DNA of 64,000 bases from Pseudomonadota bacterium. Its GTDB lineage: Bacteria > Pseudomonadota > Alphaproteobacteria > Micavibrionales > Micavibrionaceae. The notes under the pieces are model-generated. The model had not been told where the DNA came from. It did no database searches and worked only from the letters and a program-made list of their open reading frames with translations. The position numbers and the translations under genes are program-made. This document shows positions 23,257 through 26,500 of the stretch, one piece after another. The first letter of the stretch is position 1; every line of letters begins with the position of its first letter. The DNA is taken from positions 10,043 through 74,042 of the forward strand of contig JBCCKS010000005.1 in the NCBI GenBank assembly GCA_039027295.1. Reading direction: 5' to 3'.

Positions 23257-24528
23257 TTATGGAGCTGGAGCATCCCACACCTCTGCAACTCTAGTGTCAA
23301 GTACAGTTGGATCAGGTCTTGTAACTACTGATGCGGCTGCACGTTGCTCACTTGCTGTTGAGCCACGATCTGGTGTTTCACCTGTTCTTTCAGCTGTTGT
23401 TTCAAAAGTTGTCGTGGCCTGACTCATGACTTCAGCTCCAGCTCTTTGTAAAACAGGGGAATATTCTCTAACCAATTGCGTATAGGGCTGTAACATAAAT
23501 CCGTTAGGGTCTAACATTTCAGCGATTACAGGCATAAAGCCACTCATAATTCCTGCAAGAGCATTTTGCCATTCTGGTGGAAGGCCTTCAATACTGCTTA
23601 AAAAGTTAGCAATAAATTCATCAGGATCTCTCATAAGATCAAGAAAATCATTAAAGCTTCCAATCCCTGCCGCGCCAAATGCACTTACGCCTATATCTTG
23701 CAATGCGGCTAATCGAGCTGCATCATTATCTGCTGCTGCTAAAGCTTGTAAATGTGAGAAATCGATATCTGCACCGCCCGCGTCAAGGCTTCCATCACCA
23801 ATTTTTTCCAATACTTGAGTCAGAACTCCACGCTGTAAATCGTTTTGGAGTACCTCATTGAGTTGATCAATTGTAAACCCACCGGCTTCCCCAGCGGCAA
23901 CTTGCTGAAGGCCCTCTAACATGGTTGGGTCATTTACAACAGCTGAATGTACGGCCTGTGCTAATTCTGGATCAGCTTGAATAAGATCAACAGTTTCAGC
24001 TGGGATCATACCAGCATCTCTTACCGCATTTAAAAATTGTTCAGGAGTTCTCTCTCCAATAATATTTCTTGTAATCTCGCCGTGCTCGCTCTGATTCCAG
24101 AAGCCATAACGATCAAATTCTTCTTGTGTAACACCTAAGCTATTTAAGAAATTTGCTTGCTGCTCGGAAACACCTCTACCCGCAGAAACTTCAAAATCTT
24201 GGCCTGCTCTAGCCACTTGGAAAATTTCTTGTAATCTTGCTTCTGATAAATCTCCTGCCTCTATAGCCGCTTCAACAGCATCGAGTGTTTCGGCACCATT
24301 TGTTCTCATATGCGCATGAAAGGCTGAACCCAATTGAGGGTTATTTCTCATCAGATCGGTAAATTCTCTCATTTGAGGATTATTTGATGATGCTTCGTCA
24401 ATGCTATCTAGAATATCGGTAAGGGTATTTCTTTGCGCTGCAATATCAAATTTGTGCGTAAACCATGTATCTCTAGTGTCTAGAGCATCTAATGCTTCGT
24501 CTAATCTCCCTCTATCGATAATACTCAT
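23257..24528 (-). CDS. hypothetical acidic protein, 423 aa, nearly lysine-free (cassette gene 3)
   Basis: Longest ORF in the region. It has 2 Lys, 0 Cys and many Asp/Glu/Ala/Gln, and ends ...VAEVWDAPAP. No family recognised. Confidence 0.6.
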   Translation of the reverse strand: MSIIDRGRLDEALDALDTRDTWFTHKFDIAAQRNTLTDILDSIDEASSNNPQMREFTDLMRNNPQLGSAFHAHMRTNGAETLDAVEAAIEAGDLSEARLQEIFQVARAGQDFEVSAGRGVSEQQANFLNSLGVTQEEFDRYGFWNQSEHGEITRNIIGERTPEQFLNAVRDAGMIPAETVDLIQADPELAQAVHSAVVNDPTMLEGLQQVAAGEAGGFTIDQLNEVLQNDLQRGVLTQVLEKIGDGSLDAGGADIDFSHLQALAAADNDAARLAALQDIGVSAFGAAGIGSFNDFLDLMRDPDEFIANFLSSIEGLPPEWQNALAGIMSGFMPVIAEMLDPNGFMLQPYTQLVREYSPVLQRAGAEVMSQATTTFETTAERTGETPDRGSTASEQRAAASVVTRPDPTVLDTRVAEVWDAPAP

Positions 24529-24630
24529 CTATTTTTTCTCTATTACTTATCTATTTATCTTTAAATAAATTATATTTTATGTGGGTTTAAAAAAGCAAAA
24601 AAACATAAATTATTTAATAAAATCAATAAT

Positions 24631-25182
24631 TTATGCCGGTGCCGCTCCCCCGGGCCCACCACTGTTTGCACGGCTGGCAGGTTGCCCATCTGCACTAGCG
24701 CGTCTAGAGCGTAATTCAGCCAATTGAGCTTCAGCTTCTTTCATGCTCTGATCAGCGTCTTCTTCAGCCTTCCTAGCAGAAGCAAGAGAATTGTTTGTTC
24801 TTTGTGCATTTACGCTTCTTGAAAAGCTTTCGCTAATTCCTCCCAACAAATTTCCTAAACCAGAAATTGCCCGAAAATATTTTTGATATTTTTCTCTCAT
24901 CCCTAGGCTTACAACTTGGATTCCTGCTGCTAAAGCTTTAAAGCCGCCTGTAATCCCATCTATTTGCAAATCTTCAAGTTTTTGTTCAGCCTGTTTTGCT
25001 GCACTTCCTTGTTCTGTCCTCGCTTCCTTATGCTCACTAATTTCAGACCTTAAAGCTATCTCTTCTTCAGTTTTTTTCAGTTGATTAACGGCATCAACAA
25101 CACCGCCTTCGGCTTGTGGGCTTCCTTGCGGCGCGGGTTCCGCACCACTTTCTTCATTAAAATTTCGAATATTCATATTCAT
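24631..25182 (-). CDS. hypothetical coiled-coil protein, 183 aa (cassette gene 2)
   Basis: An AAAGGA sits about 8 nt before the ATG, 22 nt after the upstream stop. Charged helical ends flank a Gly-rich core with KYFRAISGLGNLLGGI. It ends ...GGPGGAAPA. Confidence 0.55.
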   Translation of the reverse strand: MNMNIRNFNEESGAEPAPQGSPQAEGGVVDAVNQLKKTEEEIALRSEISEHKEARTEQGSAAKQAEQKLEDLQIDGITGGFKALAAGIQVVSLGMREKYQKYFRAISGLGNLLGGISESFSRSVNAQRTNNSLASARKAEEDADQSMKEAEAQLAELRSRRASADGQPASRANSGGPGGAAPA

Positions 25183-25204
25183 TATATTGTCCTTTTAAAT
25201 AGGA

Positions 25205-26500
25205 TTAAGCCATAGTTCCTGGGGCGGGTGCAAGCATATCTGCATTTCTCACGCCGTGGTTTGCTGCACCTGCTGCAACTCTTACTACGGACCCATTTGT
25301 TGCAGATCCAAATGCTGCTGTTACGCCTCTACCTGCTGCCATTCCGGCTCTTGCAAAACCAACTGCTGCTGGACCAACAAACCATGATGTAACCTCACCA
25401 CCTGTATGCATAACCTGCGCAAATCGTGATGTAAGGTCTGGCGCGCCCATTAATCCATTTGCAACACCTTCCACTTCTGCTTGCCAGTTTTGTGAAATAT
25501 CTCTATCGGCATAACCGGTATCAATTCCAAATACGCCTGCTGCGCGGCCAAACAAACCGTCTAAGCCATCAGCAACGTTACCAACAACCCAGCTTCCTGT
25601 GTTGAGTGTGCCTTCTACAAATCCATGACCAAATGCATGCACTCCATTACCAATATCACCAAGAATGGTTCTGCCATCATCACCTGCAACAGGTGGATCT
25701 GTTGTAACGGCATCTGGTCCTGGCGCAGAGGCAAGAACAACATTAGGATCACCACTGCCTACGGCATTCGGATCAACATTTGCTTCCTCACCAAAGGCTG
25801 CGCTAGCAGCCACTGTTCCTGCTCCAACTACTGTCAAGCCAGTAGCTATTCTGCCAAAGCGTGTTCCGCCAATAGCATTTAATGTGCCAGAAAAGAAATT
25901 TCCAATTCTGCCTCTCAATCCTGTCGCCGTTGCTGCGGCTCCACCACTACCATTTATATTTACGCCGGTTTGATTTCTTGCCCAAGGAGAGTTTGGGTTA
26001 CCACCACCATTTAAGGTAACGCCTTGCCCTCTATTTAAAAGCCATCTTGCTCCTAAGCCTGTTGCTCCTAATCCTAGTGCGCTAAGCCCAAGACCTGTTG
26101 TAATTCCAATTCCAGCATTAGGGTCGTTTCCAGCATTAGGATCGTTTCCACCATTGGGGTCATTAGGGTCAAAACCGCCATTATTCGCAAAACCTGTTCC
26201 AGGCTCTCCATCAATTCCTTGCATGCCTTGAGCCCACTGGACCATGCCTGCTCCATATCTGCCACCTGTTAATCCAGCAATTAAATTTCCTAAACCTTCT
26301 ATCATCGCGTAGAAGTATTCGAATCCTGCGGCAACTTCTGTTCTAGCACCAGCTTCGGCAAGAATTCTTTGCGCATTTTCTGCTGTTCTTCCTAAAAAGC
26401 CATCAGGGCTACCAAAAACAGCACCTCCTGCGGCTCCAATACCAAGAAGTCCTGCACCCCAGGTACCTACAGACCGGATAACTCCCCAAATTCTTCCCAT
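25205..26500 (-). CDS. hypothetical glycine-rich protein, 431 aa, lysine-free and cysteine-free (cassette gene 1)
   Basis: Own codon-by-codon reading confirms the frame. It has 0 Lys and 0 Cys, small-residue GxxxG/AxxxG runs, GNDPNA repeats and EYFYAMIEGLGNLIAGL. It ends ...LAPAPGTMA. Codons are host-like (AGA, GGA/GGT, GCA, TTA). Confidence 0.6.
   Translation of the reverse strand: MGRIWGVIRSVGTWGAGLLGIGAAGGAVFGSPDGFLGRTAENAQRILAEAGARTEVAAGFEYFYAMIEGLGNLIAGLTGGRYGAGMVQWAQGMQGIDGEPGTGFANNGGFDPNDPNGGNDPNAGNDPNAGIGITTGLGLSALGLGATGLGARWLLNRGQGVTLNGGGNPNSPWARNQTGVNINGSGGAAATATGLRGRIGNFFSGTLNAIGGTRFGRIATGLTVVGAGTVAASAAFGEEANVDPNAVGSGDPNVVLASAPGPDAVTTDPPVAGDDGRTILGDIGNGVHAFGHGFVEGTLNTGSWVVGNVADGLDGLFGRAAGVFGIDTGYADRDISQNWQAEVEGVANGLMGAPDLTSRFAQVMHTGGEVTSWFVGPAAVGFARAGMAAGRGVTAAFGSATNGSVVRVAAGAANHGVRNADMLAPAPGTMA
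26112..26165. repeat. 3 x 18-bp tandem repeat inside the 431-aa gene (encodes GNDPNA-type hexapeptides)
   Basis: ccagcattagggtcgttt / ccagcattaggatcgttt / ccaccattggggtcatta, read directly from the sequence. Confidence 0.85.

Follow-up and report, generated by a model that had tools for sequence, protein, structure and literature searches.

A syntenically fixed, fast-diverging gene cassette between purH and lepA of Micavibrio-related alphaproteobacteria, with coordinated lysine loss in two of its three proteins

Three co-directional genes, here called A, B and C, lie between purH and lepA in a 64,000-nucleotide stretch of a Pseudomonadota metagenome-assembled genome (MAG; assembly GCA_039027295.1, contig JBCCKS010000005.1, positions 10,043 to 74,042), which is referred to below as the window. 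An earlier inspection of the DNA letters, hereafter the original prediction, had described them as an orphan cassette of Lys-depleted, Cys-free proteins and had proposed that the products are exported or envelope-active. Its open reading frame (ORF) coordinates, protein lengths and intergenic gaps (22 nt between A and B, 102 nt between B and C, and 46 nt between C and lepA) were reproduced exactly, as follows.

25205..26500, minus strand: gene A (A431, 431 aa), first gene of the cassette; ORF and coding signal
24631..25182, minus strand: gene B (B183, 183 aa), middle gene; ORF and coding signal
23257..24528, minus strand: gene C (C423, 423 aa), last gene; GenBank MEM6811187.1, hypothetical protein of a Pseudomonadota MAG
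21384-23210: lepA, 46 nt past gene C

The coding signal is strong in these frames for all three genes, and strongest in A. The exact A431 sequence was absent from a collection of 15 billion proteins in which B, C and the neighboring genes are found with NCBI accessions; the public annotation of the MAG may have missed A431 or given it a different gene call. Relative to 38 reference genes, the G+C content of the cassette at second codon positions (GC2) is raised (0.43-0.58 versus 0.365 ± 0.03), as is that at first positions (GC1), while GC3 stays at 0.26-0.28 versus 0.30 ± 0.04. Synonymous codon choice is host-like in all three genes, and the originally reported combination of a G+C excess with host-like synonymous positions was thereby recovered.

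To place the cassette, homologues of C were collected in an exhaustive HMMER search (threshold E ≤ 1e-3). This search defined a family of 82 representative proteins including window C (that is, 81 other clusters; 32 at E ≤ 1e-10), whose common region corresponds to C residues ~115-400. Gene A also has clear homologues (L083_A, 37% identical, E 7e-53; L090_A, 39%, E 1.6e-59), with further ones in L087_A and L089_A (weaker matches) and L092_A, where L numbers denote loci. With these relatives the label "orphan" no longer applies. For B, eight loci have a counterpart at the equivalent position (134-207 aa) that shares its architecture, and sequence similarity of these to window B is undetectable. 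Gene order was compared on the contigs of nine C-family members, eight of them with informative flanks, and in a lepA-anchored scan of one genome per species. Wherever the contig reaches that far, a C-family gene lies directly upstream of lepA, with an opposite-strand Inhibitor_I78 gene interposed in L089 and L091. Given enough upstream DNA, the full order is purH-[extra gene Z]-A-B-C-[I78 inhibitor]-lepA, and the full arrangement, or at least C followed by lepA, is present in L002 and L082-L092. The cassette thus recurs in the same slot across related loci.

The proteins encoded in this slot diverge far faster than their neighbors. Relative to the window, A is 33-38% and C 26-38% identical, with B undetectable, whereas the flanking genes are 85-92% (LepA), 74-77% (PurH) and 59-76% (ChpT) identical. 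This pattern is typical of interaction-interface proteins or of relaxed constraint. As judged by gene order and homology, these comparisons show a conserved, lineage-specific, syntenically fixed, fast-diverging operon of Micavibrio-related alphaproteobacteria. LepA of the window is 92% identical to that of the alphaproteobacterial MAG CC_bin14 (L002), which carries a two-gene version of the cassette, and 80-82% identical to those of Micavibrio aeruginosavorus and Micavibrio-like MAGs. Together with the ctrA gene, the gene for a ChpT-type phosphotransferase and a polar-flagellum cluster in the window (fliF, fliG, fliH, motA, a sigma-54 activator, flhA, flhF and a MinD/FleN-type ATPase), these identities mark the host, on sequence grounds, as low in GC (39%) and related to Micavibrio, an epibiotic predator of bacteria.

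The inability of the original prediction to assign A, B and C to a family was borne out by scans against Pfam, NCBIfam, PHROGs and PADLOC and by a PDB sequence search, none of which gave a significant match for any of the three; for the PADLOC anti-phage defence models, no match fell below E = 0.88. A word-index homology search with C found only C itself, and the same search found nothing with the C-terminal half of A or with whole A, for which low-complexity words probably saturated the candidate list. At the level of these profile and sequence searches, the three encoded protein families are shown to be without a detectable relative among characterised families.

The most striking property of the cassette is its lysine content. 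A431 contains no Lys and no Cys and C423 two Lys and no Cys, exactly as had been counted originally, which makes them the two lowest-Lys proteins among the 52 non-overlapping window ORFs of at least 150 aa. At the window mean Lys frequency, such counts would arise with a probability of about 1e-12 (A) and 7e-10 (C). B183 has ten Lys residues (5.5%, normal) and likewise no Cys. Absence of Cys is general, extending to 77 of the 82 C-family members and to all A, B and extra-gene products examined except one. Within the C family Lys content ranges from 0.2% to 9.8%, and 14 of 82 members fall below 1.2% and form a distinct low class. Since the nearest relatives of low-Lys members often have 6-9% Lys, and since a member's Lys content shows no phylogenetic signal when compared with that of its nearest neighbor (Spearman 0.05), Lys depletion has arisen, or reverted, repeatedly. 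Across nine loci the Lys percentages of A and C are strongly correlated (rho 0.885, p 0.0015); the corresponding B-versus-C relation is not significant, with B at 5-10% Lys in all loci.

The codons used by A and C retain a footprint of how Lys was lost. AGA accounts for 17 of the 21 Arg codons in A (81%) and 19 of the 24 in C (79%), in agreement with the original remark that Arg is mostly AGA, versus 27% in the 38 reference genes (P about 1e-7). The Lys residues of homologues align to AGA-encoded Arg, to Gln or to Glu of the window proteins. Because AGA is a single transition away from AAA, the dominant Lys codon, this usage indicates in-situ replacement of Lys by Arg. All homologous loci examined have a GC content of 41-48% and occupy the same syntenic slot, which, together with the Lys variation among relatives and the AGA footprint, argues against an origin in a high-GC lineage and points to Lys having been purged in situ, by selection, from A and C specifically.

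A peptidase-inhibitor I78 gene lies on the opposite strand between C and lepA in L089 (7503-8042, minus strand) and L091 (11557-12084, minus strand), and possibly in L082 (11258-11761, minus strand). It was seen in loci with Lys-poor A and C and was absent from the Lys-normal loci examined. Its presence beside the cassette in two Lys-poor loci is suggestive and confounded by their relatedness.

The second shared property is the C-terminus, for which the original prediction had noted short Ala/Pro tails on all three proteins. These tails are real. They extend through the C family, as seen in 79 of its proteins, and recur in A and B orthologues.

25208..25240, minus strand: tail of A, DMLAPAPGTMA; orthologues end DMFAPAPS, DMFAPVTP, NFTPLAP, VMTPATP, MEFVSP and AFAVPSSNP
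24634..24660, minus strand: tail of B, GGPGGAAPA; positional orthologues end SGPTGMA, RAGGGPG, APITPAA and GLPGILTVR
23260..23277, minus strand: tail of C, WDAPAP; family-wide uncharged Pro/Gly/Ala tail with a hydrophobic residue at -3

When the last six residues of the 79 C-family proteins were compared with the whole proteins, acidic residues (D/E) made up 1% versus 14% overall and basic residues (K/R) 1% versus 8%, with Pro at 14% versus 5% and Gly at 15% versus 9%; position -3 is M, L or A in 54%. By its sequence, the tail resembles a tag that A, B and C have in common, and does so in many genomes. All three proteins are acidic (isoelectric point, pI, 4.2-5.2) and without Cys.

Protein A (pI 4.8) is rich in Gly (21.6%) and Ala (15%), and is organized as follows.

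26393..26470, minus strand: A residues 11-36, basic N-terminus and then a 20-residue Gly-rich hydrophobic stretch (Kyte-Doolittle 19-residue mean 1.2-1.4); equivalent in A orthologues
26216..26338, minus strand: A residues 55-95, conserved helical hairpin, FYAxxExLG...G.YG.G..WA..GQG (predicted local distance difference test, pLDDT, about 81); conserved in 7-8 A orthologues
26111..26164, minus strand: A residues 113-130, three tandem NDPN(G/A)G units, found by regular expression; variable or absent in orthologues
26036..26116, minus strand: A residues 129-155, second Gly-rich hydrophobic segment, with GLG-type repeats (Kyte-Doolittle 1.2-1.4)
25793..25849, minus strand: A residues 218-236, third and most hydrophobic segment (Kyte-Doolittle 1.6)
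25301..25672, minus strand: A residues ~277-400, best-conserved domain of the A family (alignments A2 and A4; also in L092_A)

The consensus of the last of these is IGNGxHAFxHGFV...TGxW...GIDTGY..RDIS.DWQ...APDL...WFVGPAAVGF. In an AlphaFold2 (AF2) model of A, built from a seven-sequence alignment, the mean pLDDT was 37 and residues 55-95 were the sole confident part. The basic N-terminus with its hydrophobic stretch (residues 11-36) is a possible signal anchor or membrane segment, which leaves the earlier statement that the cassette has no signal peptides in force for B and C, where a hydrophobic N-terminal core is missing, and ambiguous for A. The proposed identity of A as a glycine-zipper component was not upheld: the strict GxxxGxxxG pattern occurs twice versus 4.1 ± 2.2 times in shuffled sequences, so that "glycine zipper" is unsafe as a label, and window A matched none of the Pfam glycine-zipper families PF13441, PF13488 and PF05433 at E ≤ 1. 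One A orthologue gave weak Pfam Gly-zipper matches.

Protein B is charged and coiled-coil-like, with one central hydrophobic segment (residues 77-95). A motif around GLGNL had originally been seen in both A, where it falls within the hairpin (nt 26270-26317), and B. The similarity is present in the window pair as a 19-residue BLAST match (E = 0.004 for that single comparison), and its first half, FYAxxExLG, is conserved among A orthologues; nothing resembling GLGNL was found in the B counterparts of other genomes. From these alignments, GLGNL does not link A and B at the level of families.

Protein C is acidic (pI 4.2) and all-alpha, with a conserved core.

23329..24186, minus strand: C residues ~115-400, family core DPELAxAxHxAxVxDPTML.GL ... 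DI.FSH ... NP..F...L (HMMER matches, alignment A1 consensus)

An AF2 model based on a 79-sequence alignment contains 23 helices at a mean pLDDT of 77.9, exceeding 90 at residues about 120-280. Foldseek returned no match to this model at E < 0.1; the best PDB match (E 4.1) and the best BFVD match (a tape-measure protein, E 0.26) were dismissed as generic all-alpha, and the best PDB sequence or profile matches (designed helical bundles; Nif11, 9zn4, E 0.035) as compositional or motif-level. The core does resemble STI1/HOP DP domains (PF17830) and Nif11-type leaders in having short helices with a repeated DPxL...DPxxL. Four of 79 C-family members match PF17830, all below threshold (E 7.5e-4 to 0.024); membership was rejected, the two matches shown scoring 14.9 and 17.9 bits versus a curated cut-off of 29.1 and lacking Foldseek support. 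We treat the STI1-DP and Nif11 matches as leads, not as family membership. The profile and structure searches that the original prediction had proposed thus yielded homologues for C and A, no known family, and a fold of C without a match.

The 595-nt gap upstream of A, which had been singled out as the largest in the window, is real, and the remaining large gaps hold ORFs. It contains two putative promoters.

26501..27095, minus strand: upstream non-coding region, 595 nt, with conserved blocks (alignment A5)
26695..26726, minus strand: putative promoter P1, CtrA-type box TTCA-N7-TTAA (26726-26712) and TATAAT (26700-26695), from the aligned loci
26563..26592, minus strand: putative promoter P2, TTGGAA-18-TATAAT, from a promoter scan; conserved in all aligned loci

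The region is conserved better than the cassette proteins themselves. Alignment A5, covering eight loci, has 41 invariant columns, and the ninth locus, L092, has the same blocks. Block 1 consists of a TTAA-N7-TTAA box with CATATAAT and GGGG(C)AAG 11 nt further on; block 2 consists of TTTGxAAT and, after about 17 nt, TATAATTTAG, and coincides with P2. The TTAA-N7-TTAA box is perfect, at the aligned position, in six of nine orthologous upstream regions; the window and L092 have one mismatch each, and in L082 a TTAA half-site alone was found within the aligned stretch, without the full box. In CtrA-activated promoters of alphaproteobacteria such as Caulobacter, TTAA-N7-TTAA overlaps the -35 region, which is the layout of block 1. 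P1 resembles these promoters in carrying a box of the same form 11 nt upstream of TATAAT at a conserved position, and differs in that the window copy, TTCA-N7-TTAA, departs from the perfect consensus and is a candidate site. The promoter and terminator scan gave counts not above those of shuffled sequences, and the upstream region showed no Rfam match and no conserved RNA fold. The window encodes a CtrA-like response regulator (MRVLLVEDD..., 47807-48508, minus strand) and a ChpT-type histidine phosphotransferase (28717-29421, minus strand; the HPTransfase gene is also found in orthologous loci), so that the organism has the CtrA phosphorelay.

Two further features of the non-coding DNA deserve mention. 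A perfect 20-bp palindrome, AGTGTTTCACGTGAAACACT, with a CACGTG core, lies at 27012-27031, some 65 nt past the purH stop codon and preceded by a GC-rich hairpin; it is conserved in L083 and L090 and may serve as an operator or belong to the terminator region of purH. The 102-nt B-C spacer (24529-24630, minus strand) is extremely AT-rich, with T-runs and a TATAAT, and gene C might carry its own internal promoter or an attenuating signal there. Orthologous B-C spacers are mostly long too (about 100-290 nt), that of L092 being only 8 nt.

In Micavibrio proper the purH-lepA slot (L005 610-8246; L006 3562-6051; L007 2791-8264; L008 1631-8641) holds different proteins, namely a small Gly-rich protein and giant Cys-free proteins of 714-2096 aa; two small conserved proteins come next, with ends of the form ...PLI(L/I)H.... 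The ends of the giant proteins resemble those of the cassette (LAFTPAG, YNAPAPG, FDAPVA and MVPTGP). Alignment of the A and C profiles with the M. aeruginosavorus slot proteins by hhalign gave no homology, and these proteins are therefore treated as analogous, not homologous. Across the order, the slot looks like a hypervariable cargo site. For the analogous slot genes of M. aeruginosavorus ARL-13, GMV_708-710, the supplement of PMC3189940 gives expression indices of about 3-9 in each of the two life phases.

Elsewhere in the window, a 699-aa protein (50430-52529, minus strand; MEM6811214.1), encoded directly downstream of flhA, flhF and the MinD/FleN-type ATPase gene, is also Lys-poor (1.4%) and Cys-free, with 10% Asn and 8% Pro. 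It has no Pfam or NCBIfam match and forms a singleton cluster; it may be a flagellar export substrate, for example hook-length-control-like. Just downstream of lepA, a 260-aa protein (20560-21342, minus strand) is likewise a singleton without a family match. A perfect TTAA-N7-TTAA box (21352-21366), one of three in the window, precedes its start codon by 10 nt. Related loci differ in the gene that follows lepA: its product has 366 aa in L091, and in L083 it is a Lys-rich protein of 423 aa.

Taken together, these observations are best accounted for by a cell-cycle-regulated, leaderless-exported surface or prey-interaction module, a reading to which we assign a probability of roughly 40%. The operon would be transcribed from the conserved promoters in the long upstream gap, and the CtrA-type box on one of them would tie its expression to a cell-cycle or motile-phase program. 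A and C lack a classical Sec signal, clearly so for C and ambiguously for A; they would be exported from the cytoplasm without a leader, by a system that recognizes their uncharged Pro/Ala/Gly tail at the C-terminus. Substrates of type I secretion systems (T1SS) are characteristically acidic, Cys-free and signalled at the C-terminus. Type I secretion would be the most plausible route for A and C; a second possibility would be the flagellar export machinery whose genes lie in the window. T1SS is favored because its substrates have these properties and because it is the leaderless system documented in Micavibrio, for which PMC3189940 reports complete T1SS and T2SS and the absence of T3SS and T4SS (types II to IV). 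Outside the cell, Gly-rich A with its three hydrophobic segments may act on or in the membrane or surface of prey, host or producer; acidic, all-helical C may be its soluble partner or carrier; and B, with normal Lys, may be retained by the producing cell in an accessory, chaperone or anchoring role. The repeated, coordinated Lys purge in A and C and not in B would then reflect lineage-specific selection by an extracellular agent that targets Lys, be it a protease specific for Lys or a modification directed at it. As a working model, the originally proposed exported or envelope-active set with its tail as a tag is supported by the conserved unit, the lack of Cys, the acidity and the uncharged tails; its A/B motif and its glycine zipper are not retained.

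Several points weigh against this interpretation. No secretion-system genes were found within 10 kb of the cassette in any locus: in the flanks, searched up to 10 kb in more than 10 loci for an ATP-binding cassette (ABC) transporter, a membrane fusion protein (MFP) and TolC, only housekeeping genes are present. The GGxGxD nonapeptide repeats of repeats-in-toxin (RTX) proteins were not matched by regular expression in A, B or C, and the NDPN(G/A)G units of A are not RTX. The N-terminal and internal hydrophobic segments of A would equally fit an integral inner-membrane protein, and the tail could be a mere disordered low-complexity end. The homology of B between loci consists of position and architecture only. 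In the window the CtrA-type box deviates at one position, and TTAA-N7-TTAA shows no enrichment over the whole stretch (3 found versus 5.3 expected), so that the case for the box rests on its positional conservation. AGA-rich Arg usage occurs in a few reference genes too (per-gene maximum 0.89).

The strongest competing explanation, though an unlikely one, is a non-secreted envelope or polar complex under CtrA control. In it, Gly-rich A would cross the inner membrane three times, B would form a hairpin in the membrane, and C would bind from the cytoplasm as a peripheral partner; assembled in motile or pre-divisional cells, the complex might, for example, be an accessory to the attachment pole, a pilus or the flagellum. 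The three hydrophobic segments of A and the single one of B, the upstream CtrA-type box, the presence of ctrA and a flagellar gene cluster on the same contig and the failure to find secretion genes nearby all suit such a complex. However, it leaves unexplained the near-total absence of Cys in more than 80 homologues, the charge-free C-terminal tails and the recurrent Lys purge limited to A and C. Divergence so far above that of the flanking genes would be unusual for structural machinery, and the hydrophobic segments of A are moderate (Kyte-Doolittle 1.2-1.6) and very Gly-rich.

Quite unlikely, in our judgment, is a toxin/immunity or bacteriocin-like module with A as a membrane-disrupting toxin, C as its carrier or receptor-binding partner and B as the immunity protein that the producer keeps. 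The Gly-rich, hydrophobic nature of A, the weak Gly-zipper matches of its orthologue, the arms-race-like divergence and the hydrophobic segment and different Lys behavior of B are what one would expect of such a module, but a fixed chromosomal position with vertical inheritance everywhere is atypical of bacteriocin loci, no dedicated exporter was found beside the cassette, and there is no similarity to known toxin or immunity families. A bolder form of the export hypothesis is comparably doubtful. It holds that A and C are exported by a new kind of tag at the C-terminus, namely their uncharged Pro/Ala/Gly tail with its hydrophobic position -3, that this tag is common to all proteins encoded in the hypervariable slot between purH and lepA in Micavibrio-like bacteria, and that Lys switching records an arms race with a Lys-directed defence of prey or host, for example a Lys-specific protease or ubiquitin-like conjugation.

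Two further explanations address Lys depletion itself, and we consider both improbable. In the first, which was part of the original prediction, the proteins are effectors delivered into eukaryotic cytosol and avoid Lys to escape ubiquitination. The Lys depletion is indeed extreme and apparently selected, and some homologous contigs derive from BBAY-labelled samples, which we take to be macroalgal-surface metagenomes. Against escape from ubiquitin stand the Lys-rich composition of many family members (up to 9.8%) and the failure to find eukaryote-like domains. Micavibrio, the nearest named relative, preys on bacteria, and the closest cultured relatives lack T3SS and T4SS according to PMC3189940. 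In the second, A and C are abundant proteins lost to the medium, and Lys (and Cys) is spared where Lys is limiting. Such economy would account for a loss that is lineage-specific and coordinated in A and C and absent from B, and Micavibrio is described as needing several compounds from its prey (PMC3189940). But amino-acid sparing is usually moderate and does not go down to 0-2 residues in more than 400, Lys has here been replaced by the costlier Arg, and a related locus carries the gene for dihydrodipicolinate synthase (DHDPS) of the lysine/diaminopimelate pathway, with no sign of Lys auxotrophy. An ancient origin in a high-GC lineage, with synonymous sites ameliorated after import, was also raised originally. 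It would fit the raised GC1 and GC2 with host-like GC3, but is hardly credible given the GC content and shared slot of the homologous loci, the alternation of Lys-rich and Lys-poor versions among relatives, the AGA footprint of local Lys-to-Arg change, and a flanking promoter conserved along with the cassette.

The locus offers concrete candidates for the molecules with which epibiotic predators of the Micavibrio group hold on to their prey and drain it, by virtue of its presence in all relatives examined, its fixed slot, its divergence far above that of its neighbors, its apparent cell-cycle-type promoter and its export-type features. The core of C adds a confidently predicted all-helical structure without a PDB match. 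Coordinated Lys removal in two of three proteins is an unusually clean evolutionary signal, usable genome-wide to find proteins with a shared extracellular fate, and the Lys-poor state could be correlated with gain or loss of Lys-specific proteases or Lys-modifying systems. If the bolder tag and arms-race hypothesis were true, Lys purging would be a general signature of delivered predator proteins.

Comparison with known systems places the cassette near several of them. A T3SS translocator set (SipB/SipC/SipD-like) was considered and set aside, with no Pfam, NCBIfam or PDB match and no class II tetratricopeptide-repeat (TPR) chaperone or injectisome neighbors; flagellar export genes are the only T3SS-type export genes in the window. 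Near-absence of Lys with retention of Arg is shared by A and C with the Lys-poor A chains of AB toxins (ricin A, cholera toxin A1), in which it is read as escape from a Lys-directed degradation tag. There is no homology between the two groups, and the cassette hosts are related to predators of bacteria; unlike in the toxins, Lys depletion here is recurrent, reversible within one family and co-varying in two co-encoded proteins. Glycine-zipper membrane-active proteins, for which Caulobacter CdzC/CdzD and type VI secretion (T6SS) effectors of Tse4/Ssp6 type are leads, resemble A in their Gly-rich, moderately hydrophobic segments and, as regards the lineage, in the alphaproteobacterial setting, whereas A is much larger, has a conserved non-hydrophobic C-terminal domain and is not enriched in the zipper pattern. 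T1SS substrates (HlyA/RTX proteins, RsaA, HasA) differ from the cassette in their GGxGxD repeats and in the ABC/MFP/TolC genes that are missing here within 10 kb, and show no sequence similarity to it. Their likeness lies in the absence of an N-terminal signal, as in B and C, and in acidity, lack of Cys and one Gly-rich member. It may also lie in a concentration of information at the C-terminal end, which is uncharged and built of small residues and in some cases has an acidic residue with hydrophobic ones after it (compare DMLAP and DMFAP). On this evidence we rate the cassette as encoding putative leaderless exported or envelope proteins of a predatory lineage, with families and a fold that lack known relatives; the finding is genuine, and the idea of an export tag survives.

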